From the NCBI GenBank assembly GCA_016937015.1, contig JAFGWT010000062.1, positions 2,609 to 66,608 on the forward strand: DNA of 64,000 nucleotides. Direction: 5' to 3'. This document shows, one piece after another, positions 7,869-29,978 of the stretch (position 1 is the stretch's first letter; each line of letters starts with the position of its first letter). Under the pieces are notes generated by a model that made no database searches, was not told the origin of the DNA, and saw only the letters and a list, made by a program, of their open reading frames with translations. The stretch is from Deltaproteobacteria bacterium (GTDB taxonomy: Bacteria > Myxococcota_A > Polyangia > JAAYKL01). A program made the translations under genes and the position numbers.

Positions 7869-10800
7869 TCACAGCTCCAGACGCGCCATCATCTTTTGCA
7901 ATCCAAACCGTGAAATGCCAAGCAGTTCAGATGCGCGACTCCGATTGCCACCACTTTTATTCAATGCCGCACGAATGAGCTGAATCTTCAGCCGGTTCAC
8001 ATGCCCTTCAAGGTTTAAATCGGTAGCGTCTTCCATTACCGGAATGGAAAACTCCCGCAGTGCCTCGCTGAAATGGGATACATCCATAATGTCGCCACAC
8101 ATGACCGTGGCACGCACGATTTCATTTTCAAGCTGCCGCACGTTCCCCGGCCATCGATAATGCATCAGATGCGCCATTGCCTCCCTCGAAATCTCTATCT
8201 GCCGACTCGGTGCATGCTTCTTCAGAAACCCACGCACCAGCATTGGAATATCAATGCTGCGCTCCCGCAGTGGCGGCAGTCGCAGTTCCATCACATGCAA
8301 ACGATAATACAGATCCTCCCTGAAAGTCCCCTTTCTCACGCACTCCTTCAGGTCCGCGTTTGATGCCACCAGAATACGAACATCCACTTTAATCGAATTG
8401 TTCTGCCCCACAGGACGGACCTTGCCGTCCTGAAGCACCCGAAGCAATTTGGACTGCATTTCGATGGGCATGTCCGCGATTTCATCCAGAAACAGCGTTC
8501 CGCCGTGTGCTTCAGCAAAAAGGCCACTGCGGTTTCGAACCGCTCCCGTGAACGCCCCCCGCACGTGACCGAACAATACGCTTTCAAGCAGCGGCGCCGG
8601 AATTGCCGCACAGTTTTCAGCAATAAACGGCTTATCTCGACGCCCCCCCGCCTGATGAATCGCCCGGGCTGCCAGCTCTTTTCCGGTACCCGATTCGCCA
8701 CTGATCACCACCGGAATATCGGTGGCGGCGACCCTGTCCAGTAATCGAAAAATTTCCATCATCGGCCTGGATGCACCAATGATACCGTGATAGTCATACT
8801 GCGCCGCGAACTCCCCGTTCACTTCCCTTAAATTCTGTCGCGTCGCCGCCAGCTCCCTTTCGGTAATCTCCAAACGGGATTCCAGTTTACGGTTAAGCGA
8901 TTCTATCTGCACATGGTTCTTCTGCACATGGGCCAGCAGCCTCGCATTTGTAAGCGCGACAGCAGCCTGATGCGCCAGCATTTTCAGCAATGCCACCCGT
9001 TCGCCGTCGAACTGCCCACGGGTGGTGCTATCGAGATAAATCGTTCCCCGGGCTTCGCCTTTCACCAGCAACGGCACCGCAACGATATACATCAGATTGA
9101 GCAGGGCCACGCTGCGATAATCGCGATACTGTTCATCTTCCTGTGCATTGGTTGTTACGATTGGCTCTCCCTGTTCGAAGGCCCGACGGGCGACCGAACC
9201 GGAGTAATTCTGTTCCTTTGCAAGTATGGCCTCACTGTCCAGATTTCTGGCCGAGCGGACTGAAAAGCTGCCATCGTCCTCCCGCAACAGCAGAAACCCA
9301 CGCTCCGCACCTGTCACGTCGATTGCAGTATCCATGATAATGTCCAGCTGCGCATCCACATTCAGCTCAGAATTGAGCCTCGCTGCTATTCTTATCAAGC
9401 GCTCCATCCATATCTGTTTCATGCTGTTTTCCTCTGCTGTTAATTCCGTCCGGGCCAGCCGGGCATCTGTCTGGGTTCGCATATTCAATAACTGAACTTC
9501 GTACGGATAACTGTCTGGCTGATGAACTGCGGGCGTTTGCCTTCGAATTTCATCAAGCAATTCCAGAGCACGCACACTCCAAAAATAGCACCGGTCCACA
9601 TTGCCCAGTCGAAGAGCGCCAATCGCCGCAATGGCCATCGCCTGATAGGATTCAAGACTGAACAGCTGCGTCGCTTCGGACAACGCCCCATCAAGATCCA
9701 TCACACTGGACGACACAGCGCCCCGCCCCCTGAGCGCAAACATCACCCGAAGTGCCAGCCAGGCGTGACTCTCAAACACAATGTCACTCTCAATTTTCGA
9801 AAACTGTGAATAGGCGTCGTCAATTCGCTCCATGTGCATCACGGAATCCGCCAGGTGAAGCAATGCAAAATCGCGCTGCACCAGTTGCTTTCTTCTGTCA
9901 AAAATAGCCACCGCACGAGCAAGCGCTTCCGCTGCATCAGCATACTGCCCTGTTGCCAGCAATGACTCCCCCAACACCGTCAGCGCATGTCCAAATACCA
10001 GGGGATTTTCGTTTTCATTCATATCTCCAACTGCTTTTCGCGCCGCCCAAAGTGCGTCTCGCCCATCTCCCAGTCGCAGCAGCAACTGCGCGTAGTTGGA
10101 TTCCGCCTGCACCAATTCCACTGGACGCCCCACAAGACGCAGTCGATTCATGCCATTGCGGTAGCGTATCAATGCATTTTGCACGTCGCCCAGTTCGGTC
10201 AGCGCCGCAGCCCAGTTGACCACATACGTCGCCGCGCCATGACTGTCGCCGGATTCATCAGCGAACCGAAATGCGGTCTCATAGCGTTGTGCCGCTGCTG
10301 CCCAGTCTTTTTGCACATGAGATACCATCCCCAGATATGCATGGTACCGTCCCGCCTCAATGGGACTGCCGTGACTGACGGTACTTAGACCTTTATTGAA
10401 GATATCCTGCGCCCCTGCAACATCACCGGTGTGCAACATCAGCAACCCTCTGATATTGAACATCCCGCTCTGATGGGCCAGTTGGTCGCTTAACGATTCG
10501 CCCGCAACCAACGCCAGTCCTTTTAAAGGATCTCCTCTGTCCAGATAAATTCGAGCCAGCAACGCTTTGGCCGACGCGCGAACAAGCGGTTCAGGTGAGG
10601 TCTGCAGGCCGGTAAGTATCTCATGCGCCTCGTCCACGCGTCCATCGAGACGCAGCGAGGCCGCCTTTTCAAACAGCGCCTCACCGCTATCGTCGGCGTC
10701 GAGTACTTCGGCCACCAGGTGCAGCGCCTTTTGATACCGTCCGGATCGCCGATAGCACACTGCCAGCTGCAATCGCAGCGCATCCGTCCCAGCCCCATCA

Positions 10801-12896
10801 CACGCCAGCAGTTTTTCCAGACAGGAAATTGAAAGACTCATATCCCCGGCATCAGTCGCCTTGGTTATCGCTGCCTGCAGCAGCGGCACCGCTTCTTTCA
10901 ACTTCGCCCCGGCAAAAGCAAGCTGTCCCCGTTCCGCCGCGGATCGCTGGGGATGCAATCCTTCAAACAGCTGGCCACTCAGTCGGGCCAACTCACCGTT
11001 TTCCAAAGACAGGCGAATACCATTTGAAACGTAGGACACGAGCGATATCCATCCACCATTCAATTGCAGATACCCGGCCCGCCCCAGGCGATTGACTGCA
11101 TTGTCGACAGCGGTAGCCGAAAAAGAGCCAAGAGTCGCGTAAATCTCGCTCTGGTCCAACCCGACCTGGACCAGGGACAGCACAGACAGAATCTCCCGTT
11201 CGACAGTGTCCACATGTGCCAATAACCGACGGGCCACCAGCAATCCCACGTCTTCCGGAAAAGTAATATCCGCCGGCATATCTCCCAGCTGATATCGATT
11301 GTCCACAAAGAAAAACTGTTCCACCAGCGCTTCCACAAAACGCGGATTTCCACCGGCTATCCGGTGAATACGGGATGCCATTGAATCTGAGAGTGCAACG
11401 CCGGTAATATCCGTCACCATCTGTTGTTCCTCGGCACTGGACAGGGGGGCGAGGGAAAGCAGCAGCGCAGTGCCCGCCAGTTCTTTGGAAAAAGTTACGT
11501 CGGAATTTTCGAACAGCAAAACAACGCCGCCGTCCACCGAAAAGGATTCGCGCTGAACCATATGCGCAGCCGCCACAAACTGCTGCGCTGTTGCGTCATG
11601 AAGCAAAATGACCATGGGTCCGAACTGACGACGCATCATATCGAACAACCCGGCCATCGCGGACTCGCTGACGTACCCAACGTCGCTCTCGGGCTGTCTC
11701 ACCATGCCCTCTCCACCTTCATAGCCAGGCAGGTCTGTCAATTTTGCCCTTTCCGATGCCGACAAACGATTTCGCATCTGCGATAAAATCTGCGTAAATG
11801 TGCCGGATAGATATGTAATGGAACGCTTTGCATGCTGAACATGATCAATCTGCTCGGACGCAACCACTTTGCGGACGAGCCGGGTTTTGCCTACGCCAAC
11901 GGCGCCATTTACAATCCCGAGCCCCAGCCTGTCCTGCTCAAAGGTCTCACGAATGAACGTTCTCAGTTGGCGAACCGCCCCTTGCCGCCCCACAAATCGC
12001 GTTGCTTTGGCGGCAGCAAGGCGAGAGACAGCATCTTCCGCTTCGCTGGCATCATCCAGATGTCCGTCTGCAGAAATTTTCGAGCCGGCACCGCTTTTTT
12101 GAAGCGCCAGGATCGTCTCACGGGCTGAAAAACGTTGCTCCAACCGGGGATGGATCATTCGTCTCAGCACTTTTGCCAGTGGCGGGGGGACACTGCCCGG
12201 AATGGGTGTCTGAGCACCAACGCCTTGCGCATCAATATTGAATGCGGGTGAAACACCGCCAATCAACTGAATCAATACCTGTCCAAGGGCGTAAATATCA
12301 CTTCGCTCGTCCGCCAGCCCCTCGAACAGCTCATCGGCCATATACCCCAGAGTGCCCGCCTTGATGCCAATGGCGTTATGCTTGAATCGCGCCAGGCCTA
12401 AGTCTATCAGATGGGGGATGCCATCACGGTCGACAATAATATTCGACGGCTTCACATCAAGATGCAGCAACCCCCTTGAATGCAAAAGCCGCAACGCCCG
12501 AGCAACCCCCACGCCAATGTTTACCGTGGATTCAAGTCGCGCCTCAGGGGCTTGCGCCTCAATATATCTGTCCGCACGAATGCCATCCACAAGCGCTTCT
12601 GTAAAAAAAACATGGCTTTCAGGCAACGCACCGGCAGGAACGACGTGTTGAATCCGCTGAAAATCAAACACACTGGCAAGATTTGGATGCTGAAGATCCA
12701 GCAGATAGGTGTATTCGGTCTCCAATGCACCCGCACCCGCGTCCGGGCTCAGCTTTAGCGCGCGCCGACATGAAGATACAGTATCCATGACTTCGTATAC
12801 CGCCCCCTGAGTGCCCTCCCCCAACGGACGAATCAGCCGGTAGCGTCCATTTAAGGTAATCCCCATATCTCCGTATGCGTCATAATTATCAATCAT
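7869..12896 (-). CDS. Multidomain regulator: Ser/Thr protein kinase + STAND/AAA ATPase + TPR repeats + GAF + sigma-54 activator (AAA+) + Fis-type HTH
   Basis: Kinase motifs '[13 protein letters not shown]' and 'DLGLARF'. P-loop '[10 protein letters not shown]'. Long TPR-like helical repeat region. GAF-like segment ('[20 protein letters not shown]'). Sigma-54 module '[15 protein letters not shown]...GAFTGA...FLDEIADMP...FREDLYYRL'. C-terminal HTH '[19 protein letters not shown]'. Confidence 0.85.
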
Positions 12897-13175: not shown

Positions 13176-14519
13176 ATGATTCCTTCAAAAAACGCCACAC
13201 CACAGCACTGGCTGTCACTGGCCAATGCGGACTGGAAAACGCAAATGAAGCATCTGATTCAAAGCCCAGACCAGCTTCGCGATTTCCTCAACCTTTCTGA
13301 CCGACAAATCAACGAGATAAATCGGGCGTCGCAGCTTTTCCCAATGGCAATTACGCCCTATTATGCATCCCTGATTGATACGAAGGATCCCCAATGTCCA
13401 ATCCGGGCACAGGCTGTCCCGACCATCAGGGAAACTGATTTTGCCAGCGCAGATATTGAAGATCCCCTCGCGGAAGACCACGACAGTCCCGTCCCGGGAA
13501 TAACACACCGATATCCGGACAGGGTATTGCTGGTCGTATCGCAAATGTGTGCCATGTTTTGCCGGCACTGCACCCGGAAGCGCTCAGTCGGTGACGAAAC
13601 CCACACGCCGTCAAAAGACAGCCTTAAAAACGCAATTCAATATATCAGGGACACACCCGGAATAAGAGATGTGCTCATCTCAGGCGGCGATCCGTTTTTG
13701 CTGTCGACCAAACGGCTGGATTGGATTTTAACCGAGCTCAATGGGATTGAGCATGTGGAAATCGTTCGAATTGGGACCCGCACCCCTGTTGTGTTGCCAC
13801 AGCGGATTGATGATGAACTTGTCAATATGCTGAAAAAACATCATCCGGTGTGGGTAAATACCCATTTCAATCATCCCAGGGAAGTGACGGCCGAAAGCAA
13901 AAAAGCGCTGCGCAAACTGGCGGACGCCGGTATTCCCCTGGGCAATCAGAGTGTTTTGCTGCGGGATGTCAATGATTGCCCACTCATCATGCAGAATCTG
14001 GTGCATCGAATGGTTCAAAACCGTGTCCGCCCGTACTACATGTACCAATGCGATCTGTCCCGGGGCATTGAACATTTTCGAACGTCGGTCTCCAAAGGCA
14101 TCGAAATCATGGAGATGCTGATTGGACATACCAGTGGATTCGCGGTGCCAACCTATGTGGTCGATGCCCCGGGGGGGGGTGGGAAAATACCGCTGACGCC
14201 CCAGTATCTCATTTCGATGGGCACAAGAAAGGTGGTATTGCGCAACTACGAAGGTGTTATCTGCCTTTACAGCGAACCGCCCCAAAAGGAGAGCAGCTGC
14301 CCGGCCGACTGCCAGTACTGCGATGACCTGACGCCCAAAAGCAAGCCCACTCCCAAAGGCTCAAAATGGGCCACCAATGTTGGGGTGGGAAAACTGTTTG
14401 ACGATTCAAATAATGTGATAGCCATTGTTCCGGAGAATCTTGAGCGCGTCCAGCGTCGCGAGGAGAATTATCAGGAGAATCATCAGGAGAACATTAATGA
14501 CGGGGAAAAGAATGACTGA
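13176..14519 (+). CDS. ablA: Lysine 2,3-aminomutase (radical SAM), AblA/KamA
   Basis: Diagnostic KamA cluster 'CAMFCRHCTRKR' and full KamA-like length. C-terminal acidic repeat tail 'ENYQENHQENINDGEKND'. Confidence 0.9.
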   Translation: MIPSKNATPQHWLSLANADWKTQMKHLIQSPDQLRDFLNLSDRQINEINRASQLFPMAITPYYASLIDTKDPQCPIRAQAVPTIRETDFASADIEDPLAEDHDSPVPGITHRYPDRVLLVVSQMCAMFCRHCTRKRSVGDETHTPSKDSLKNAIQYIRDTPGIRDVLISGGDPFLLSTKRLDWILTELNGIEHVEIVRIGTRTPVVLPQRIDDELVNMLKKHHPVWVNTHFNHPREVTAESKKALRKLADAGIPLGNQSVLLRDVNDCPLIMQNLVHRMVQNRVRPYYMYQCDLSRGIEHFRTSVSKGIEIMEMLIGHTSGFAVPTYVVDAPGGGGKIPLTPQYLISMGTRKVVLRNYEGVICLYSEPPQKESSCPADCQYCDDLTPKSKPTPKGSKWATNVGVGKLFDDSNNVIAIVPENLERVQRREENYQENHQENINDGEKND

Positions 14520-15438
14520 CGCCGCCTCCATTTCCCATTCCTGCCCCAAAGTGCCTGATTCGGTCGTCGAACTTGACACACTGCCGCAATATGGGGTTAC
14601 CCAACGCATCGATGGCGATGGTTACACCTACACAGCCTTTTTCAGCAATAGAAACGACAGAATAAGGGTAACGGACTACCAGGTTTTTGACCATGAAGGG
14701 ATAATCCAAAGTCTCAAACACCATGCGCGTCAACACCAGCATGGGAAAATATTCCTCAAAGCACATGCCAAAGACGCCGCAGATTTTAAATGTGCCGGGC
14801 TGGATGAGGAAGCGCGCATCGCAGGGTACTTCAATGGCGATGATGCGGTCGTGCTTTCATTGTTTACCGATGACCGTCGGGCTATTCCGCGTCCTCCCGT
14901 CCCGGAGAGAGAGAAAATCGTCGCCTCTGCCCGCCATGGGTTTCAGACACCTGCCCGTCCCCGACCTCTGCCAGGTGATTTCAGATGCCGTCTCGCCACG
15001 CCTGAGGATGCCCCTGCACTGGCGCGCGTTTTCGCAAACAATTTTGAATCATACCCCTTTCCGGTATTTGATGCGACATATGTACAACACACCATGGCCA
15101 ATGATGTGCTGTACATGCTCATCTCCCGCCACAGCGAAATCGCGGCGGTTGCATCGGCGGAAATGGTTCCCGCACTTTCAAATGCAGAGATGACCGACTT
15201 TGCGACCATGCCCAGGTACCGGGGCAATGGATTGGGTGCGTTTCTGCTGCGCGCACTCGAGATTGAAATGAAAAAAAGACGCATTCAATCCCTTTATACG
15301 CTGTCCAGAGCCAGCTCGATATCAATCAACCGAATCTTTGGCAAAGCCGGATATCGGTACACTGGCACCCTGGTGCAGAACTGCCATATCAGCGGCCATT
15401 TTGAAGACATGAATTGCTGGTGCAAATCACTTCAGTAA
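14512..15438 (+). CDS. ablB: Beta-lysine N6-acetyltransferase (GNAT), AblB
   Basis: Start ATG overlaps the kamA stop (ATGA-type coupling). ~308 aa with a GNAT C-terminal half ('RYRGNGLGAFLLRALE'). Size and context match the ablAB operon. The ORF-track start at 14425 would overlap kamA in another frame and is less likely. Confidence 0.75.
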   Translation: MTDAASISHSCPKVPDSVVELDTLPQYGVTQRIDGDGYTYTAFFSNRNDRIRVTDYQVFDHEGIIQSLKHHARQHQHGKIFLKAHAKDAADFKCAGLDEEARIAGYFNGDDAVVLSLFTDDRRAIPRPPVPEREKIVASARHGFQTPARPRPLPGDFRCRLATPEDAPALARVFANNFESYPFPVFDATYVQHTMANDVLYMLISRHSEIAAVASAEMVPALSNAEMTDFATMPRYRGNGLGAFLLRALEIEMKKRRIQSLYTLSRASSISINRIFGKAGYRYTGTLVQNCHISGHFEDMNCWCKSLQ

Positions 15439-22662: not shown

Positions 22663-23100
22663 ATGACTGACAACCCATCAGTTTCACAAACCCGTATCCG
22701 AGTCATAAAAGCGATTGTCACTGTTCTGGTCGTCGCTGGCGCCATCACCTGGCTCGTGGTATCGAGCTTTGACGAAAACATGATTTACTACAAAACAGTG
22801 CAGGAGGCATTGAACGAACGGAGTCAATTTGAAAAAACCCCGGTGCGTATCAACGGACTTCTAGTTCCTGACTCGGTGAAACAAAAACCAGGTACCAACC
22901 AGTTCAAATTTCAGCTCGAAAAAAACGACGCCATTTTGGAGATTGAGTATGCGGGCATTTTGCCGGATACCATGCGAGAAGGTAAGGAGCTGGTTGTGGA
23001 AGGTACCCTTGTGCCAGGCAAAAACGTTCTCAGTGCAACCGAAATTCTCACCAAATGCCCCTCCAAATATGAAAAAGAAGCCCAGAGCAGAAACAATTGA
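22663..23100 (+). CDS. ccmE: Cytochrome c-type biogenesis heme chaperone CcmE, Cys (CxxxY) variant
   Basis: N-terminal TM, OB-fold core ('RINGLLVPDSVKQKPGTNQFKFQL...GILPDTMREGKELVVEGTLV'). Heme-binding motif is 'KCPSKY' (Cys in place of the canonical His). Confidence 0.85.
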   Translation: MTDNPSVSQTRIRVIKAIVTVLVVAGAITWLVVSSFDENMIYYKTVQEALNERSQFEKTPVRINGLLVPDSVKQKPGTNQFKFQLEKNDAILEIEYAGILPDTMREGKELVVEGTLVPGKNVLSATEILTKCPSKYEKEAQSRNN

Positions 23101-23933
23101 CTGCGATCAGGCAAATTCTGTTCATCGCCGCATTGCCATTTGAAGCGGCATCGGTTCGGCGACATCTTGATATGGCGCCAAGCAACGGCGTGCTTTCTGC
23201 ATTTACCAATCCGCCTTATCATCTGGTAGTCTCCGGTGTGGGCAAGGCACACGCCGCCGCGGCCACTGGCGCGCTGTGCAGTCAGTTCGACCCCGATGCG
23301 ATTGGCGCGGTGGTCAACATCGGCGTTGCCGGCGCCGTGTCAGATGCAATTCCCATCGGCAGCACCTGGCTCATCAATCAAATACACGACGCGGCGACTG
23401 CCCGATCGTACTACCCGGATATGCTGGCCACCCATCAGTTAAATGAAACCCAGGTGACCACCTTTGACAGGCCTGTTTCCAGTACCGTCAATGCGCCCAA
23501 AGGCGGTCTGGTCGATATGGAAGCCAGCGCTTTTTTTGAAGCGGCATCCATGTTCGTTGGCCCGGAAAAAATCATCTGCGTCAAAGTGGTATCAGATGTT
23601 CTGCAACACCCTCCCCGCATCAGTACAAAACAAATGAGCGCGGCCATTGAATCGGCAATGCCCAACATCCTTACCGTTGTTCACAACAGCTGCGCGTGTA
23701 TCGCTCAAAACCCGGCAATGTCGCTCAATGAATCCCACCACGAGTACATGGCTGGAATATCCAAAGCATTAAGACTGACGCGCACACAGCAGATACAGCT
23801 TCATCAGGCGGTAACGAGATTCATTCACATGCATCCTTCCACTCCGCTGCCGGCGTTTATCCCTCAACAAATAAAATCTTCAAGAGAGAGGAATCACTGT
23901 TTTGCAGAGCTCCAGCAAGAGTTGCTTCGCTAA
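23097..23933 (+). CDS. PNP/MTA-SAH nucleosidase family protein (MTAN, futalosine-hydrolase or HpnG-like)
   Basis: 'LVVSGVGKAHAAAATGAL', 'VNIGVAGA' and 'GGLVDMEASAFF' match the PNP_UDP_1 fold. C-terminal ~70-aa extension. Confidence 0.65.
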   Translation: MTAIRQILFIAALPFEAASVRRHLDMAPSNGVLSAFTNPPYHLVVSGVGKAHAAAATGALCSQFDPDAIGAVVNIGVAGAVSDAIPIGSTWLINQIHDAATARSYYPDMLATHQLNETQVTTFDRPVSSTVNAPKGGLVDMEASAFFEAASMFVGPEKIICVKVVSDVLQHPPRISTKQMSAAIESAMPNILTVVHNSCACIAQNPAMSLNESHHEYMAGISKALRLTRTQQIQLHQAVTRFIHMHPSTPLPAFIPQQIKSSRERNHCFAELQQELLR

Positions 23934-24903
23934 GCCGCTGTCACATATTTACATTGAGCATGCCATCGCCACCCACCCTCGGACGGTTTCCCTGGTGCAT
24001 CGCTTTCCAGATGCACAGAATGTGTATATTGACAGCTACAAACATGTATTCAATCGCAGCCACCAGAATTTTGACCTCCAAAAAAAAACGCCCAAACTGA
24101 TTCTGGCACAAAAACAGGTCCCCCACGTTTATCCATTCTCCGAAAAATGCCAAATGGCGGCATTTGAAAAAGCCGTGTATGTCACACCAGTTCTGGGATG
24201 TCGCTTCGATTGCGACTTTTGCTTTTTGCATGGCATGTACAACAGTGCCAATCCGGTAATTTTTGTAAATATCGAAGAAATGCAGACAGAACTTTCACAG
24301 AAAGCCGCAGAGTCGAACACACCGTTGTTTGTCAGCCTGTCCTACGAAACCGACCTCCTTGCGCTCGAACCCATTTGCGAAATGCTGCCCGACTGGATTG
24401 CGTTTAGCCGCAGATCGCCAAACCTTTTTTTTGAATGTCGCACCCGAAGCGGACTGTTTCAAAAAATCGCAAAGGAGAAACCCCAGCAAAACTTTTTGTT
24501 GTCGTGGTCACTTAATCCGGACGAAATCATCACACAGTTCGAGCACGGCGCACCCAATCTAAATAGCCGCTTGCGTGCCGCACGCCAGGCATTGGCGGCC
24601 GGATGGCCAGTACGACTCTGTTTTGATCCGATAATTCCCATTCCAGACTGGCAATCCAGTTACAGGCGCCTGTTTAAACACGTCTTCGACACATTGCCCG
24701 CCAGGCAGCTGTACGATGTGACAACCGGCCCCTTTAGAATGGGCAGCGACTTTTTCAAACGTATTCGCAAACAACGGCCTTGGTGCGACCTGTACTATAA
24801 AGAGATGATTATTGGCACTGACAGTTTCAATAATGTTATAGTGGAAGGACTGCAACAATATGTTCCCATGGAAAAGGTGGTCATATGGAAGTCGCAATTA
24901 TAA
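23902..24903 (+). CDS. Radical SAM protein of the spore-photoproduct-lyase (SPL/COG1533) family
   Basis: Cluster 'CRFDCDFCFL' (CxxxCxxC) ~90 aa from the N-terminus and SPL-like length. Overlaps the upstream gene, suggesting an operon. An alternative downstream start is possible. Confidence 0.75.
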   Translation: MQSSSKSCFAKPLSHIYIEHAIATHPRTVSLVHRFPDAQNVYIDSYKHVFNRSHQNFDLQKKTPKLILAQKQVPHVYPFSEKCQMAAFEKAVYVTPVLGCRFDCDFCFLHGMYNSANPVIFVNIEEMQTELSQKAAESNTPLFVSLSYETDLLALEPICEMLPDWIAFSRRSPNLFFECRTRSGLFQKIAKEKPQQNFLLSWSLNPDEIITQFEHGAPNLNSRLRAARQALAAGWPVRLCFDPIIPIPDWQSSYRRLFKHVFDTLPARQLYDVTTGPFRMGSDFFKRIRKQRPWCDLYYKEMIIGTDSFNNVIVEGLQQYVPMEKVVIWKSQL

Positions 24904-25595
24904 CCGGAGCATCCAGAGGGATTGGACTGGAAATAGCCAAAAGACTGGTTTCCGCCGGATATGAAACCTTTGGTCTCGCCAGACAGTTTGACACCTGCGA
25001 TCTGACATCTGAGCTGTTTCACCCAATCGTTTGTGACATCACCAATCTGAGTGAACTGACTGTCGCCGCCAGCCAGATTGTACGGGAAAAAAAGCGGGTG
25101 GATGTGCTGGTCAACAATGCAGGCGTTGGGATTTTTGGTCCATTGGACAGTTTAAAAATAAGCGACATTGACATAATGGTTCGCACCAATGTGACCGCCC
25201 CATTTGTGCTGACGTCGGAACTGTTGTTCTGGCTGCGAAAAAGCAGCGGCTACGTCATTAATATCGCATCCACCGCCGCACTGAAAACGCAGGCTCAAGG
25301 CGCAATTTACAGCGCGACCAAATCGGCGCTGTTGCATTTTGGAGACTGCCTGTTTGAAGAGACCCGAAAACAGGGGGTACGCGTGACGACCATCTGTCCG
25401 GACATCACCGGAGAAACAGATTTTTATCAACACAATTACTTCGCGCCGTCCGAAAACGAAGATACATTCATTCTGCCAGGTTGCGTTGCGGATGCAGTAA
25501 TAAATGTCCTCAATCAGCGTCCGGGCACTGTGGTCTCACAGATTGTGGTGCAGGCCCAACGTTTTCAAATTACAAAACGCCCGCCATCTTCCTGA
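24885..25595 (+). CDS. SDR-family short-chain dehydrogenase/reductase
   Basis: 'ITGASRGIGLEIAKRL' Rossmann motif, 'NNAG', and catalytic 'YSATKSAL'. Confidence 0.85.
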   Translation: MEVAIITGASRGIGLEIAKRLVSAGYETFGLARQFDTCDLTSELFHPIVCDITNLSELTVAASQIVREKKRVDVLVNNAGVGIFGPLDSLKISDIDIMVRTNVTAPFVLTSELLFWLRKSSGYVINIASTAALKTQAQGAIYSATKSALLHFGDCLFEETRKQGVRVTTICPDITGETDFYQHNYFAPSENEDTFILPGCVADAVINVLNQRPGTVVSQIVVQAQRFQITKRPPSS

Positions 25596-26865
25596 AATTT
25601 TTAAAGTAGTACTGCAGCGTTGTATCTGACAGCCCGCCCTGATCATATACCAGTGAGGCGGAATAAAAAGTATTTGCATCCAGATGGCGATAAAAGTCCT
25701 TCGCCAGTCTTTGTTCAGCCACCAGTTGGGTATAGAGTCGGGTACCGGGGAACGGAAAAAGAGATGACAGCAGAACCCAATCCGGTGCGATGTCACGGCA
25801 AAAGTCAACGGATTCCCGAAGATGCGCTTCAGTTTCGTCGGGCAATCCAATCATGAACGTTGCCACAATCTTTATGTGCTGCTGTTTTAGCAACCCCACC
25901 TTGTACATAATTTCTTCATTGGAAACAGACTTGCCAAGCGCTTTTTTTCGCATGCGTTCGTTTCCGCACTCAATTCCTGTCAGCACGCGGTAGCACCCTG
26001 CCTGCCGCAGAATTTTCACAATATTTTCATCAATATCCTGAATATGTACATTGCACCAGAATGGCCGGTTGATCTCTCGCCTGAACACATCGGCAAATTC
26101 GGTCAGCCAGTCGACATCCATAGTGAAAATATCATCATGAAATCCAATAACGCCGTTGTACTGATAAAGCGCCGTGGCAGCATTTATTTCCTGAACAACG
26201 GATTGAACCGTTCGTCGCCGAATCATCGCCTTCCCCTGAAGTTTGATGAGTCTCGGATTCAAACAGAAACGGCAGCCGTATCTGCATCCTCTGGTCGCCA
26301 TAAACTCCATGCCCACCAACCTGCCTGCTTTTGTGGCCAGGACATCCTGATACGGAAAAAATACCCGGTCCGGGAAAGGCAGCGAATCGAGATCCGCCAC
26401 CATGCAACCGGTGGCGTTCTGATTCAGTTTGCCATTGGACTGAAAATACAGATTCGGCACATTATCCAGCGTCCCTCCGGTTTCCATCCAGTCTGCTATT
26501 GCGCCTGTGGCGAGTTCACCCTCCCCGGCACACACGCCGGTGACACCTTCTTCCATGGCAAGAACTTCCGGCAAGGCAATGGCATGGGGGCCGCCTACAA
26601 ACACGGGAAGTCTATGCTTCCAGTATTGCTGTAAGACACGACTGAACAATGGATACCCTGTGGTGCACAGATATACAAACACTGCGTCACAGTCCATCAC
26701 CGCCTCAAGTGTTTGAGTATCATCCAAATTATCTATATTGAATAAAACCGTCTGATGGTTTAACTCTTTTAGAATAGCGGAGATGGAACCGAGTCCCTGG
26801 CTATATCCCAGATAATTGGCAACATCACGCGGCGGAACAAAATTAACCAGTGCGAACCGTTTCAT
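25570..26865 (-). CDS. B12-binding-domain radical SAM protein (class B)
   Basis: N-terminal B12-binding-like domain, then 'ATRGCRYGCRFCLNP' (CxxxCxxC). Confidence 0.85.
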   Translation of the reverse strand: MKRFALVNFVPPRDVANYLGYSQGLGSISAILKELNHQTVLFNIDNLDDTQTLEAVMDCDAVFVYLCTTGYPLFSRVLQQYWKHRLPVFVGGPHAIALPEVLAMEEGVTGVCAGEGELATGAIADWMETGGTLDNVPNLYFQSNGKLNQNATGCMVADLDSLPFPDRVFFPYQDVLATKAGRLVGMEFMATRGCRYGCRFCLNPRLIKLQGKAMIRRRTVQSVVQEINAATALYQYNGVIGFHDDIFTMDVDWLTEFADVFRREINRPFWCNVHIQDIDENIVKILRQAGCYRVLTGIECGNERMRKKALGKSVSNEEIMYKVGLLKQQHIKIVATFMIGLPDETEAHLRESVDFCRDIAPDWVLLSSLFPFPGTRLYTQLVAEQRLAKDFYRHLDANTFYSASLVYDQGGLSDTTLQYYFKNFRKMAGVL

Positions 26866-26905
26866 GCGTTCTTCCTATTTGAAACGCCACCAAAAGGAAA
26901 GACTT

Positions 26906-28021
26906 TTGACAGTAAACCAGCTCACATATTTTGGTATCCTTCGCGCTCCCACCAGTTGGGCCAAAGTCTGCCGCGAACTGGTCAACGCTCTGGCTCACAT
27001 GAAGCTGGACCTCAACATTTTTGAGCGAAAAGGATTTCTCTATGATTCAAACTTCGCCATCGCGGATGAGGTGGAATCGCGCATCACCAATCAGTTTCGC
27101 AACGACGTGGTATTCACGTTCGAGCATCCATCCACCTACCACATGCTTGAAGGCCGTTACAAAGTAGGGATTTTGACCTATGAAAGCACCGTTGTCCCCC
27201 CACTCTGGATAGAAGAGGCAAACAAACATCTCGACCTGCTGCTGGTCTCGTCCACATTCTGCCGTGATATTTTCGTGCAGTGCGGCATGGACGACGAAAA
27301 AATCGACATTCTTCACTACGGGTATAACCCCGAAATATACACACCGACAGGGCCGGCGATGGACCTGTCAAGAGAGACCGACAGGAACTTTAAATTTTTG
27401 GCGGTGGCATCACCCCACAAGCGAAAAGGGCTCGAGACCCTTCTGCAGGCATACCGCAATGCCTTTACCGCTGACGATGACGTCGTGCTTATCGTCAAAA
27501 TCAACTACATCCCCAAAAAACGGGGCAAACCGTTTGAGTATCGAGACATTCACGGGATGTTTGATACGTTTAAAAAAGATCGCTCTGCGCCGCAGGTGAT
27601 ACTCATGGATACATTCTTTTCGGAACATGACATTGCCGCATTGTACCGCAGTGCGGATTGTCTGGTCTCAGCGACACGCGGAGAGGGTTTTGGCATGGTT
27701 TATCTCGAGGCGCTGGCATGCGGTTTGCCGGTAATGGTCACAGGCTGGAGCGGCCACATGGACTTTCTCAATCACGAAAACGCAACGCTTATCGACTATC
27801 AATTGCGCACTGCAGGTGAAATCCAATACGATTGCAACTCCCAAAAAGCCAGAATCGCCGAGCCCGACGTGCATGACTTCAGCCGGAAACTGTTTTTGGC
27901 GATGAAAAATCCAAGGACTATCCGCTATGCGCCCGCCGATCGAAAATTCGAATGGCACAATCTGGCAAATCATTTCCTCGATACCATCTCAAAGCGGATT
28001 GCACAGACGCCAGTCAGTTGA
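26906..28021 (+). CDS. Glycosyltransferase family 1 (GT-B)
   Basis: 'EGFGMVYLEALACGLPVMVTGWSGH' is the GT1 EX7E-type signature region. Start is uncertain: the ATG at 26864 overlaps the divergent radical SAM start codon, so an in-frame TTG at 26906 or later is more plausible. Confidence 0.7.
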   Translation: MTVNQLTYFGILRAPTSWAKVCRELVNALAHMKLDLNIFERKGFLYDSNFAIADEVESRITNQFRNDVVFTFEHPSTYHMLEGRYKVGILTYESTVVPPLWIEEANKHLDLLLVSSTFCRDIFVQCGMDDEKIDILHYGYNPEIYTPTGPAMDLSRETDRNFKFLAVASPHKRKGLETLLQAYRNAFTADDDVVLIVKINYIPKKRGKPFEYRDIHGMFDTFKKDRSAPQVILMDTFFSEHDIAALYRSADCLVSATRGEGFGMVYLEALACGLPVMVTGWSGHMDFLNHENATLIDYQLRTAGEIQYDCNSQKARIAEPDVHDFSRKLFLAMKNPRTIRYAPADRKFEWHNLANHFLDTISKRIAQTPVS

Positions 28022-29978
28022 TTGCATTTTCCTTAAGACACGAAAAATATTGTCTATCTTCGGTAAGAATATGCTGCACCACCACCTCAACTGCCAAAAA
28101 GTCGACCAGCGTTTCAAATGGCAATTCTTTTCTGTTCGCGGCATTGCGTAACTGTGACGCCCGAATGAGCAGTCGCTGATGTCTCTCCGCATGCGCATCG
28201 CGCAATGGCCATTTCTGTTGTTCGAGAATCTGCTCTTCATGAGTGAAATGCTCTGAAATATCGTTAATTAATATTTCGAGTGCGCCAAAAAACTGAGCGG
28301 GTTGGTGCTCCTGTGTCATCGCGGCATTGATCACCTGATTGGCCAATTCAAACAGATTCCGATGCTCCGCATCGAGTACAGGGTCTCCACTCTCGAAAAT
28401 ACTGCGCCATGACAGAACAAGTGGTGAATCCTGTTCGGGTGACGCCCAGGAGACAACCCGCGAATCCTTATCGGGAAATGAGAGCATCTCGACCCTGTTG
28501 CGCCCTGCCCGCTTGGCCTGATACATTGTGTCATCACTGAGTCGCATGAGTTCATGCTCACTGTCAGCATGATCCGGAAAGAGCGCTACCCCAATACTGG
28601 CCGAAATCTGCAGGGGCCCGCAATTGGTGAAATGAAAAGGCTTTTGAACAGCGATACGAACCCGTTCGGCTATTACCATCGCATCCGCCGGGTCTGCCAA
28701 ATCCGGCAGCAGGATAACGAACTCGTCCCCCCCCATTCGCGCCGCGGTGTCGTAGGCCCTCAGAGTTTCAAGCAGTCTGTTGGCCACCTCAGACAAGAGT
28801 CTGTCGCCTATGTGATGGCCAAGTTCATCGTTTACCGGCTTGAAATCATCCAAATCAATAAACAGAAGTGCGATTCGTCGATGTCTGCGCCTGGCATGAC
28901 GTATCGCCTGTCGCAAACGGTCATAAAGAAGCCTGCGATTGGGAAGTCTGGTCAATCCATCGTAAAATGCGAGTCTTCTGAGCTCATCCTCCGCACGCTT
29001 TCTTTCCGTTATGTCGTGGGTAACCCCCAGCAACGCTGACGGATTGCCACTGTCGTCGGGATGTATCGATACCACCAACTCAACGTCCACCACGTGCCCA
29101 TCCTTATGCAACTGCTGAGTTTCAATCGACCGATACTCCTCTCTGTTCAGATTTCTATCCCAATTTTTCAGCGCATCTTCCAGCATTCCCTTCACTCGAT
29201 TTTTTTCACCATCTGTAAACGCTGCCCACGGAGACTGCGCCACCGCTTCGTCTGGTGACATCCCCCGCAATTTGGCAACTGCCGGACTCACATAGGTCAA
29301 ACGCTGACTCGGAATATCCATCATCCAAATCACATCATGATTATGCTCTGCAATAAAACGAAAGCGTTCTTCGCTCTCTCTAAGTTCCAACGTACGTTCA
29401 TCTACGATTTTTTCCAGATTCTCACGATACGCAGCCAGCTCTCCAGCTGCCCGTCGCTGTCGCGTCACATCGACCGTTGCGATAACATAGGACTGCGGAT
29501 TAACGCCCCGGCCATTTATCAGTTCCACATATAAATCAACCCAAACCAGCTTTTCATGATTCCCCCGACACGGCTCAATCAGCACATAGCGGTTATCGCG
29601 GCTGCCGGCAAAACAGTCTTCGCCAAAGAGTTTGTTGCGGGCGGTATCTGAAAAAAAAATGTCGCCAAAGTGAAAACCAGGCGCCATTACCGCTTCATGG
29701 GTGTACCCAAGCATCTGACAAAACGCTTCGTTCGCATGAAGCATGCGCCCTTTGCAATCCACATGGACAAGTCCCACCGCTGTGTTCTCAAAAACCGCCC
29801 GAAAGAGCTCCTCGCTGCCAGCGAGTCGCTGAGTGACCTTTCGGATGCTGAACATCAAAATTGTCAGCAGCCCAATAACAGCGATGGAAGCGACCAGCAG
29901 CACCAACTGAATTCGTCCCACAGTGGCAGTCTTCAACTCAAATATCTGATGGATTGCGAGAAGGCTCATGCATGTCAC
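28014..29978 (-). CDS. Membrane-anchored PAS/PAC - GGDEF diguanylate cyclase with C-terminal hemerythrin-like (HHE) domain
   Basis: N-terminal TM, two PAS-like segments, GGDEF ('RMGGDEFVILL'), and a C-terminal hemerythrin metal-binding pattern ('HFTHEEQIL...DAHAERHQRL'). Confidence 0.8.
   Translation of the reverse strand: MTCMSLLAIHQIFELKTATVGRIQLVLLVASIAVIGLLTILMFSIRKVTQRLAGSEELFRAVFENTAVGLVHVDCKGRMLHANEAFCQMLGYTHEAVMAPGFHFGDIFFSDTARNKLFGEDCFAGSRDNRYVLIEPCRGNHEKLVWVDLYVELINGRGVNPQSYVIATVDVTRQRRAAGELAAYRENLEKIVDERTLELRESEERFRFIAEHNHDVIWMMDIPSQRLTYVSPAVAKLRGMSPDEAVAQSPWAAFTDGEKNRVKGMLEDALKNWDRNLNREEYRSIETQQLHKDGHVVDVELVVSIHPDDSGNPSALLGVTHDITERKRAEDELRRLAFYDGLTRLPNRRLLYDRLRQAIRHARRRHRRIALLFIDLDDFKPVNDELGHHIGDRLLSEVANRLLETLRAYDTAARMGGDEFVILLPDLADPADAMVIAERVRIAVQKPFHFTNCGPLQISASIGVALFPDHADSEHELMRLSDDTMYQAKRAGRNRVEMLSFPDKDSRVVSWASPEQDSPLVLSWRSIFESGDPVLDAEHRNLFELANQVINAAMTQEHQPAQFFGALEILINDISEHFTHEEQILEQQKWPLRDAHAERHQRLLIRASQLRNAANRKELPFETLVDFLAVEVVVQHILTEDRQYFSCLKENAIN

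Follow-up and report, generated by a model that had tools for sequence, protein, structure and literature searches.

Two linked enzyme modules, one of them a widespread nucleosidase/SPL-fold radical SAM/SDR unit, in a Deltaproteobacteria bacterium contig

The five genes at positions 23097 to 28021 of the 64,000-nucleotide stretch of DNA analyzed here (the window) form two linked enzyme modules: an adenine nucleosidase-like protein, a radical SAM enzyme with the SPL fold and an SDR (module 1) and a GT4-type glycosyltransferase with a radical SAM enzyme carrying a B12-binding domain (module 2). In the reading that we tentatively favor, these modules serve a small-molecule pathway that has not been described previously. 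The Pfam domain matches of all five proteins exceeded the gathering scores, bearing out the open reading frames and domain types listed in an earlier note on this DNA. When the curated NCBIfam cutoffs were used as the criterion for membership in named families, none of the five proteins reached those for MtnN, MqnB, HpnG, SplB, HpnJ or AprD4. A literature search retrieved no paper describing the nucleosidase/SPL-like/SDR module, and we agree with the earlier note that the pathway is uncharacterized.

Module 1 is encoded on the plus strand by three overlapping genes. The nucleosidase gene (positions 23097 to 23933; 278 aa) shares 32 nt with the gene for the SPL-like protein (23902 to 24903; 333 aa), which shares 19 nt with the SDR gene (24885 to 25595; 236 aa). 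On the minus strand, the gene for the B12-radical SAM enzyme (25570 to 26865; 431 aa) converges on the SDR gene, with a 26-nt overlap, and diverges from the plus-strand glycosyltransferase gene, an operon-like arrangement with flanking genes that is just as the earlier note had described it. The glycosyltransferase start needs correction: while the longest open reading frame runs from 26816 to 28021 (401 aa), translation probably starts at the TTG at 26906 (26906 to 28021; ~371 aa), because the alignment with four orthologues begins at NQLTYFG. This leaves about 40 nt between this start and that of the B12-radical SAM enzyme at 26865. Transcription of the plus-strand genes may start ahead of the nucleosidase gene, since the TTG start of this gene overlaps the stop codon of a ccmE-like gene (22663 to 23100, plus strand; Pfam CcmE, E = 3e-25) within the sequence TTGA (23097 to 23100). 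The two genes are probably cotranscribed; ccmE was absent upstream of the module in three related loci (L001, L003 and L009), and the ccmE-like gene is a lineage-specific upstream neighbor outside the conserved module.

The nucleosidase (Pfam PNP_UDP_1, E = 1.5e-11) consists of a core (approximately residues 5 to 170) and a family-specific C-terminal four-helix domain (approximately residues 177 to 277), and the top PDB matches of its AF2 model (pLDDT 89.5) are MTANs. In an alignment with S. pneumoniae MTAN, Glu12 corresponds to E16, Met173/Glu174 to M141/E142 and Ser196/Asp197 to S166/D167, each of which is 90 to 100% conserved among 79 family members; Arg193 is replaced by a lysine (K163). 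The retained residues are predicted to cover water activation, binding of the ribose 2'- and 3'-hydroxyl groups and protonation of adenine N7. At the site of the 5' substituent in MTAN, the family, which comprises ~2,500 clusters at 50% identity, has its own conserved segment, YPD...E...T, which, together with the extra helical domain, points to a dedicated substrate in the form of a 5'-substituted adenosine. The best NCBIfam match, to fut_nucase (TIGR03664; 44.2 bits), covered the N-terminal 93 residues only, and an assignment as MqnB was rejected on the basis of the cutoff of that family (124.7 bits) and the missing mqn gene context. HpnG was likewise dismissed (TIGR03468; 23.1 bits versus a cutoff of 187.1; no linkage to shc or hpnH). 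Finally, the protein is not the housekeeping MtnN/Pfs (TIGR01704, MTA_SAH-Nsdase; 17.1 bits versus 73.8), a single-domain protein of ~230 aa that lacks the added C-terminal domain.

The SPL-like protein (Pfam SPL, E = 1.1e-15), the TTG start of which is preceded by a Shine-Dalgarno-like sequence (GAGAGG), contains the radical SAM motif Cx3Cx2C as C100/C104/C107. Its AF2 model (pLDDT 86.8) superposes over the full length on SPL (4fhc; TM 0.80, 351 columns, 16% identity), and both AprD4 and MqnE are found among its fold matches. We ruled out spore photoproduct lyase SplB itself (TIGR04070; 72.2 bits versus a cutoff of 400), also because the H-atom donor Cys140 (G. thermodenitrificans) aligns with Tyr148, a residue near-invariant in the family, and no conserved cysteine was found in the SPL-like family outside the cluster motif. 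The equivalents of Tyr96 and Tyr98 are tyrosines in most of the family and phenylalanines in the Polyangia-like clade, and the details could therefore vary among family members. The third protein of the module (Pfam adh_short, E = 3.5e-42, 144.6 bits), for which all NCBIfam and PDB matches were generic SDRs, carries the TGASRGIG, NNAG, Ser and YSATK motifs of a classical SDR. An arginine follows strand beta-2 (GLARQ), and, by precedent from other SDRs, the enzyme is probably NADP(H) dependent.

Module 1 extends far beyond the present genome. In a set of 80 genomes, taken at species level from many phyla, 71 of the 76 loci evaluable for the nucleosidase gene have it directly upstream of that for the SPL-like protein, with the two overlapping or abutting, and one locus (L084) carries an in-frame fusion of 642 aa in which the two parts have the same order as the separate genes. 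An SDR gene directly followed in 38 of 77 evaluable genomes. The pair has representatives in Polyangia, Neomarinimicrobiota, Opitutales, Lachnospiraceae/Clostridia, Leptospira, Bdellovibrionales and Balneolales. Whether or not the SDR accompanies them, the nucleosidase and SPL-like genes make up a module that stands by itself and is very widely distributed, occurring in hundreds of bacterial species. Across the 80 loci, no conserved neighbors were observed beyond the SPL-like gene and the SDR, and no acceptor-producing gene (cyclase, mqn gene or lipid gene) was conserved near the module. In two unrelated lineages, a paralogous SPL subfamily shares an operon with a GT2 and with a PNP_UDP_1 protein, the best match of which was HpnG (67 bits), indicating that the combination of a nucleosidase, an SPL-like radical SAM enzyme and a glycosyltransferase recurs independently.

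In module 2, the B12-radical SAM enzyme combines an N-terminal B12-binding domain (PF02310) with a radical SAM core (PF04055), as HpnJ does, and its Cx3Cx2C motif sits in GCRYGCRFC. HpnJ (TIGR03471) was also the best NCBIfam match (130.6 bits), followed by PhpK (89.1 bits) and AprD4 (82.1 bits), and the closest solved structure is that of AprD4 (6fd2; E = 1.4e-20). Neither name could be assigned, given cutoffs of 577.6 bits for HpnJ, for which linkage to hpnI, hpnK or shc is missing as well, with a GT4 gene and module 1 as the sole neighbors, and 500 bits for the AprD4 diol dehydratase (NF033070), so that, in the profile searches that the earlier note had suggested, neither radical SAM enzyme of the cluster reached the cutoff of a family of known function. 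Both of these nearest relatives, HpnJ and AprD4, act on sugar moieties. The glycosyltransferase matched Pfam Glycos_transf_1 (50 bits versus a gathering score of 26.4), Glyco_trans_1_4 and GT4-conflict. Since we take Glycos_transf_1 to correspond to CAZy GT4 and not to CAZy GT1, its previous label, GT1, should be dropped. No NCBIfam equivalog was reached (best match, MSMEG_0565 family; 45.8 bits versus a cutoff of 259.85), and the E-x7-E motif, EGFGMVYLEA, was invariant in five orthologues.

All five genes are kept together in L001, L003/L010 and L009, with 54 to 62% identity for the SPL-like protein. The findings that the earlier note named as refuting it, homologues scattered in related genomes or a housekeeping MtnN with radical SAM enzymes of known unrelated function, did not emerge. 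Module 2 is a clade-specific neighbor of module 1: the two occurred together solely within a small Polyangia-like clade, where four genomes have the complete block and a fifth has it rearranged, and just 2 of the 80 species-level genomes carry the B12-radical SAM and GT4 genes alongside module 1. The compact cluster pictured in the earlier note is therefore real in these relatives but is not a single unit, and in the other 78 genomes the product of module 1 must serve some separate purpose.

On the basis of analogy to MqnE/MqnB and HpnH/HpnG, the reading that we favor, tentatively and at less than even confidence, is one of radical adenosylation, adenine removal and reduction, followed in this clade by glycosylation and radical sugar remodeling. 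The SPL-fold enzyme would cleave SAM, and the 5'-deoxyadenosyl radical would join an sp2 carbon of the acceptor to form an intermediate adenosylated through C5'; the MTAN-like hydrolase, translationally coupled to this enzyme, would then take off adenine, leaving a 5-substituted ribose, and the NADPH-type SDR would reduce the carbonyl of the open-chain ribose, or else a keto group, yielding a polyol. In the Polyangia-like clade, this product would probably be handed to module 2, where the GT4 enzyme would attach a sugar, to be remodeled by the HpnJ/AprD4-like enzyme through contraction of its ring or through deoxygenation. We infer the order of the steps, what the SDR does and that adenosyl is transferred rather than a hydrogen atom abstracted; SPL itself abstracts a hydrogen atom and does not transfer adenosyl, and no feature distinguishing between the two was found in the SPL-like sequence. 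To our knowledge, MqnB and HpnG are the known cases in which an MTAN/PNP-family enzyme is genetically tied to a radical SAM enzyme, and both act on C5'-adenosylated products; it is this precedent, together with the extremely conserved adjacency of the nucleosidase and SPL-like genes, the intact MTAN residues and the recurring SDR, that makes us favor adenosylation. The proposal is weakened by the absence of an adjacent SDR from half of the genomes, of a conserved acceptor-producing gene near module 1 and of module 2 from 78 of the 80 genomes, and the gene order would suit a route that starts with the nucleosidase just as well. The sugar-directed steps are favored by the retention of the five-gene block, the recurring combination with a GT2 and the sugar substrates of HpnJ and AprD4.

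Nearly as likely as adenosylation, and equally to be taken as a possibility, is a salvage or degradation route in which the nucleosidase acts first, removing adenine from a 5'-substituted adenosine (MTA, SAH, 5'-deoxyadenosine or another SAM-derived or modified nucleoside). The SPL-like enzyme would then act on the ribosyl product as a radical lyase or dehydratase, for example, by C5-S beta-scission or diol dehydration, and the SDR would reduce the resulting carbonyl. Such a route would follow the order of the genes, and of the L084 fusion, and would agree with the structural match to SPL, the family chemistry of which is a radical lyase reaction. Its models are MqnB followed by MqnC, QueK followed by QueL, and AprD4 with AprD3, a deoxygenation pair made up of a radical SAM diol dehydratase and an NADPH reductase; the latter pattern resembles that of the SPL-like enzyme, with AprD4 among its fold matches, and the SDR. 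QueK/QueL offer a precedent for a nucleoside hydrolase working with a radical SAM lyase (PMC12632869). The lack of conserved biosynthetic neighbors would suit salvage or detoxification, but neither a transporter nor methionine-, purine- or queuosine-salvage genes are conserved nearby, and no SAM, SAH, preQ1 or purine riboswitch or T-box was present upstream in eight Firmicutes loci. The conserved charged or polar residues R103, D108 and E117, in the loop that holds the 5' group in MTAN, might suit a substituent bearing an amino acid, as in SAH. What this route would leave unexplained is the repeated association with glycosyltransferases. We consider it improbable that the nucleosidase only clears inhibitory 5'-deoxyadenosine for an SPL-like enzyme with a substrate unrelated to adenosine, which could be a nucleic-acid lesion. 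Many radical SAM enzymes are inhibited by 5'-deoxyadenosine, an effect that MTAN lifts in vitro, and the tight coupling and fusion of the two genes would suit local clearance, just as the complete SPL architecture would suit an SPL-like reaction. However, a hydrolase dedicated to one of many radical SAM enzymes would, as far as we know, be unusual, and the conserved segment at the 5'-substituent site and the extra domain of 100 aa would be needless for a methyl-group substrate. A role of this kind is further countered by the tyrosine in place of Cys140, by pI values that span 5.5 to 9.0 across the SPL-like family and are not uniformly basic, as would be expected of DNA binders, and by the SDR partner and glycosyltransferase neighbors, which are ill suited to DNA repair; DNA-repair genes are not conserved near module 1.

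The link between the modules has to be weighed separately, since, with some five related genomes as its basis, it could reflect inherited synteny. It is possible, if on the doubtful side, that the five genes do not form one pathway and that the GT4/B12-radical SAM genes are an independent glycoconjugate-modifying pair that lies beside module 1 in one clade. Besides their rarity among module 1 genomes and their separate transcription, their degree of conservation in L001, L003 and L009 (76 to 77% identity for the B12-radical SAM enzyme and 78 to 82% for the glycosyltransferase, versus 45 to 62% for the nucleosidase and SPL-like protein) suggests different constraints. Moreover, a distant homologue of the B12-radical SAM enzyme pairs with GT4-type genes without module 1 nearby (L091), another (50% identity; L089) has neither GT4 nor module 1 as a neighbor, and in L001 and L009 synteny extends to the GGDEF-hemerythrin gene downstream, pointing to a conservation of gene order in general. 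Against this, the five genes recur in related genomes with other flanks, wholly different ones in L003, and we therefore regard the block as more than chance. Likewise, in the rearranged L090, the orthologous GT4/B12-radical SAM pair (52% and 50% identity, respectively) still lies 2.3 kb from a nucleosidase/SPL-like pair, although one of a different subfamily, and the independent SPL subfamily shares its operon with a GT2.

In its boldest form, which we think unlikely, the adenosylation proposal would make module 1 a further, so far unrecognized 5'-deoxyadenosyl-radical addition after MqnE and HpnH, installing a ribose-derived C5 polyol that, in the Polyangia-like clade, is glycosylated and remodeled to a cyclitol-type head group. 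If true, this chemistry would span hundreds of species of bacteria, with gut Lachnospiraceae, Leptospira and marine Marinimicrobia among them. The route in that clade would parallel the biosynthesis of bacteriohopanetetrol cyclitol ether without depending on hopanoids, and the SDR would supply the explicit ribosyl-to-polyol reductase missing from the hopanoid pathway.

Hopanoid side-chain elaboration, in which HpnH and HpnG lead to the tetrol and HpnI, HpnK and HpnJ follow (PMC13459092), was offered as a loose analogue in the earlier note. The logic does agree: both systems contain a radical SAM enzyme, an adenine-removing PNP/MTAN-family enzyme, a ribosyl-to-polyol reduction (by an explicit SDR here, with no assigned enzyme there), a glycosyltransferase and a B12-domain radical SAM enzyme that, in our case, matches HpnJ best. 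The parts differ, however, with HpnJ and HpnG scores below the cutoffs, a first radical SAM enzyme of the SPL fold rather than the HpnH type, a Glycos_transf_1-type glycosyltransferase without a match to HpnI, no deacetylase in the cluster and neither shc nor any hpn gene among the annotated parts of the window and of related loci. Module 1 also occurs in Lachnospiraceae, Thermoanaerobacter and Leptospira, lineages that are not known to make hopanoids. The futalosine pathway (MqnE/MqnA, MqnB and MqnC) shares with module 1 an MTAN-family hydrolase dedicated to a radical SAM step, and H. pylori futalosine hydrolase/MTAN and MqnE are among the structural matches of the nucleosidase and SPL-like protein, respectively; unlike in that pathway, the radical SAM enzyme here has the SPL fold, the nucleosidase has a C-terminal domain absent from MqnB, and no mqn genes lie near the cluster. 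SplB has the full-length fold, Cx3Cx2C position and Pfam SPL membership in common with the SPL-like protein but, besides the low sequence identity, stands alone, whereas the SPL-like gene is accompanied by those for a nucleosidase and an SDR and is present in nonsporulating phyla. Finally, although QueK belongs to the IunH rather than the MTAN family (PMC12632869) and no aminoglycoside or queuosine genes lie near the cluster, the radical SAM-plus-reductase logic of AprD4/AprD3 and the nucleosidase-plus-radical SAM lyase logic of QueK/QueL each match a part of it.

Translation of the window bore out the five open reading frames (ORFs) that the earlier note had placed at 23097-28021, and each product matched its Pfam family above the gathering score. 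On the plus strand, a nucleosidase gene (23097-23933, 278 aa; PNP_UDP_1) is followed, with a 32-nt overlap, by the gene for a radical SAM enzyme resembling spore photoproduct lyase (SPL-like; 23902-24903, 333 aa; SPL) and, with a 19-nt overlap, by an SDR gene (24885-25595, 236 aa; adh_short). The SDR gene is convergent with, and overlaps by 26 nt, a minus-strand gene encoding a radical SAM enzyme with a B12-binding domain (B12 radical SAM enzyme; 25570-26865, 431 aa; B12-binding and Radical_SAM), from which a plus-strand glycosyltransferase gene (Glycos_transf_1) diverges. The latter spans 26816-28021 as the longest ORF; since conservation in an alignment with four orthologues begins at NQLTYFG, its true start is probably TTG 26906, approximately 40 nt from the start of the divergent B12 radical SAM gene.

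Immediately upstream, the stop codon of a ccmE-like gene (22663-23100, plus strand) overlaps the TTG start of the nucleosidase gene (TTGA); no other ccm genes adjoin it, and it is not kept as a neighbor in the related loci L001, L003, and L009. A scan for promoters and terminators gave counts no higher than those of shuffled sequence. Directly downstream of the glycosyltransferase gene lies a PAS-PAS-GGDEF-hemerythrin gene (28014-29978, minus strand), which is likewise found there in L001 and L009 and is missing from this place in L003. The sigma-70, FecR, and DUF4349 genes, upstream of the cluster in the window, are found on its downstream side in L001, a local rearrangement. Elsewhere in the window, a lysine 2,3-aminomutase gene (LAM_C and Radical_SAM) followed by a GNAT acetyltransferase gene (13176-15438, plus strand) forms the gene pair expected for synthesis of the compatible solute N-epsilon-acetyl-beta-lysine, and 7869-12896 (minus strand) encodes a single 1675-aa protein that combines Ser/Thr kinase, AAA_16, TPR, GAF, sigma-54 activator, and Fis-type HTH domains.

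Scanning one genome per species yielded at least 577 stretches encoding relatives, the best 80 of which were analyzed. Among the matches listed, the nearest species-level relative was found in a Polyangia metagenome-assembled genome (MAG), and the best 80 include members from Polyangia, Neomarinimicrobiota, Opitutales/Verrucomicrobiota, Lentisphaerales, Lachnospiraceae and other Clostridia, Tepidibacillus, Leptospira, Brevinematales, Bdellovibrionales, and Balneolales. In these 80 loci, the nucleosidase gene directly precedes the SPL-like gene in 71 of 76 cases that could be evaluated, mostly with an overlap, and an SDR gene follows directly in 38 of 77; in one MAG (L084:7071-8999), nucleosidase and SPL-like enzyme are fused in frame into a single 642-aa ORF. 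Orthologues of the B12 radical SAM enzyme and the glycosyltransferase, on the other hand, were present in only 2 of the 80 loci, and all-against-all clustering of the ORFs of 84 loci revealed no conserved neighbor except the nucleosidase and the SDR. It is thus this module of two to three genes, rather than the compact five-gene cluster of the earlier note, that forms the functional unit.

The genes following the module have, by Pfam, unrelated functions, the exception being six Opitutales loci with a gene for a MiaB-like methylthiotransferase. This gene, of the MiaB/RimO type (UPF0004, Radical_SAM, and TRAM; L035:7370-8806 and L027, L046, L047, L048, and L059), lies downstream of the module, either next to it or after the SDR gene, and its adjacency is probably a matter of local synteny. 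No riboswitch or T-box preceded the module in eight Firmicutes loci (Rfam, gathering threshold). The SDR ORF of several Opitutales/Verrucomicrobiota loci reaches a length of approximately 400 to 525 aa, the C-terminal part having no assigned family. In some Leptospiraceae, a PGAP1/LCAT-like alpha/beta hydrolase takes the nucleosidase's place upstream of the SPL-like gene (L006:6925-7986 and the equivalent place in L028, L040, and L079), followed in L006, L028, and L040 by a protein of 215 to 222 aa (matching the Pfam record DUF8198 in L006); other Leptospira retain the nucleosidase.

The five-gene block itself is intact in L001, L003/L010, and L009, with identities to the window proteins of 54 to 62% (SPL-like enzyme), 45 to 58% (nucleosidase), 72 to 78% (SDR), 76 to 77% (B12 radical SAM enzyme), and 78 to 82% (glycosyltransferase), and in L003 its flanks are wholly unlike those of the window. 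In a more distant MAG (L090), a divergent glycosyltransferase/B12 radical SAM pair (52% and 50% identity) is located 2.3 kb from a nucleosidase/SPL-like pair of another SPL subfamily (25% identity), with a Fic gene in between and without an SDR. That distant subfamily also occurs in two unrelated lineages, one of them Marinimicrobia (L092:3165-7140 and L093:3165-7140; L094:3252-7164 and L095:3252-7164), in an operon encoding a zinc-ribbon protein, a PNP_UDP_1 protein whose best NCBIfam match is HpnG (67 bits), a GT2, a 315-aa protein matching no family, and an SPL-like protein 25 to 29% identical to that of the window. Nucleosidase, SPL-fold radical SAM enzyme, and glycosyltransferase have thus come together as a triad on more than one occasion, an argument for a functional link. 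Other loci speak against such a link: a 50% identical homologue of the B12 radical SAM enzyme (L089) has neither a glycosyltransferase gene nor the module nearby, and a 35% identical one (L091) pairs with GT4-type genes in a locus lacking the module. A metagenome scan with the B12 radical SAM profile retrieved almost only paralogues at approximately 30% identity, which say nothing about the context of the true orthologue; these often form tandem arrays, such as those of four to six genes on L128:4730-14210, L158:636-10727, and L145:106-10625, each gene product being approximately 30% identical to the window enzyme.

None of the five proteins could be assigned to a named family, since all score far below the curated NCBIfam equivalog cutoffs (bits/cutoff). 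The nucleosidase is not futalosine hydrolase (MqnB; 44.2/124.7), HpnG (23.1/187.1), or MtnN (17.1/73.8); the SPL-like enzyme is not SplB (72.2/400); and the B12 radical SAM enzyme is not HpnJ (130.6/577.6), PhpK (89.1/600), or AprD4 (82.1/500). The glycosyltransferase reached no cutoff (top match, 45.8/259.85), and the SDR had generic matches only. A role in antiphage defence (PNP effector, "GT4-conflict") was likewise rejected, since, of the five proteins, PADLOC matched just the B12 radical SAM enzyme, at no more than 26 bits.

In established MTAN enzymology, a small set of residues activates water, holds the ribose 2'- and 3'-hydroxyls, and protonates adenine N7. Alignment to Streptococcus pneumoniae MTAN showed that Glu12, Met173/Glu174, and Ser196/Asp197 correspond to E16, M141/E142, and S166/D167 of the nucleosidase, 90 to 100% conserved in a 79-member family alignment, with Arg193 replaced by an invariant Lys (K163). 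Since these key residues are kept, the protein is most likely catalytically active, hydrolyzing a free adenine ribonucleoside. The segment lining the 5'-substituent pocket of MTAN carries a family-specific pattern (tgR..YPD ... E117 ... T122), and a C-terminal extension of approximately 100 residues is modeled by AF2 (pLDDT, 89.5) as four helices on the MTAN core, the top PDB matches all being MTANs or futalosine hydrolase. When 1.84 billion representatives were searched with a profile, approximately 2,500 clusters (50% identity; E ≤ 1e-30) fell into the family, and nearly all of the 150 best matches listed are approximately 275 aa long and match end to end; one 563-aa protein (P0365) matches with its first 247 residues and extends beyond the matched part.

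The SPL-like enzyme contains the Cx3Cx2C motif (C100/C104/C107), and its AF2 model (pLDDT, 86.8) superposes over its full length on spore photoproduct lyase, its only close solved relative (TM, 0.80; only 16% identity). The H-donor Cys140 of the lyase aligns with a near-invariant tyrosine (Tyr148), the family alignment contains no conserved cysteine outside the cluster motif, and the equivalents of Tyr96/Tyr98 are tyrosine in most members and phenylalanine in the window's clade. Family pI values, ranging from 5.5 to 9.0, do not suggest a general DNA binder.

To our knowledge, MTAN/PNP-family enzymes genetically dedicated to a radical SAM enzyme have two precedents, MqnB (with aminofutalosine synthase) and HpnG (with HpnH); such coupling is so far known only in menaquinone (futalosine) and hopanoid biosynthesis. 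In both systems, the radical SAM enzyme first attaches the 5'-deoxyadenosyl radical at a C=C bond, and adenine is then cleaved off by the hydrolase; hpnG mutants accumulate adenosylhopane. From the observed coupling of the two enzymes and the intact nucleosidase site onward, we infer each step: the SPL-like enzyme would adenosylate an acceptor, the nucleosidase would remove adenine, and the SDR would perform a reduction, followed in the window's clade by glycosylation and by radical sugar remodeling by the B12 enzyme. The hopanoid route, which the earlier note had offered as a loose analogue, next involves a reduction that gives the tetrol, after which come glycosylation by HpnI, deacetylation by HpnK, and, as proposed, a radical ring contraction by HpnJ (PMC13459092). 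In comparison, the window cluster has one enzyme type per step except deacetylation, with an SDR explicitly on hand to carry out the reduction. The nearest relatives of its B12 radical SAM enzyme are HpnJ (NCBIfam) and AprD4 (solved structures), both of which remodel sugars. On the basis of the precedents, the match of enzyme types to steps, and these sugar-remodeling relatives, we tentatively favor adenosylation followed by deadenination and reduction, with glycosylation and radical sugar remodeling as further steps in the window's clade.

Nearly as likely, if itself doubtful, is the opposite order, in which the nucleosidase would hydrolyze a 5'-substituted adenosine (such as MTA, SAH, or 5'-deoxyadenosine) and the product would be cleaved or dehydrated by the radical SAM enzyme and then reduced; this would share the logic of MqnB-MqnC, of QueK-QueL, and of AprD4 with AprD3. 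It is rather improbable that the nucleosidase merely clears 5'-deoxyadenosine for an SPL-like enzyme whose own substrate is unrelated and might be a nucleic acid, because the nucleosidase's 5' pocket is specialized, it carries an extra domain, the lyase's cysteine is lost from its partner, and SDR and glycosyltransferase partners accompany it.

A full-text literature search found no paper describing the nucleosidase/SPL-like module, a large, unstudied, and phylogenetically broad group whose hundreds of host species include Leptospira as well as bacteria abundant in the gut and the sea. Assigning its substrate would give a function to thousands of proteins misannotated as "spore photoproduct lyase" or "DNA photolyase" in nonsporulating bacteria and could bring to light a new class of metabolites or a new salvage route for SAM by-products. 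The futalosine and hopanoid couplings each led to the discovery of new radical chemistry, and the former pathway has also been pursued as a drug target. Here, too, a radical SAM enzyme is coupled to a dedicated adenine nucleosidase, unusually tightly and in one case by fusion, and the module, built from known superfamilies, resembles those radical SAM/nucleosidase pathways in its logic.
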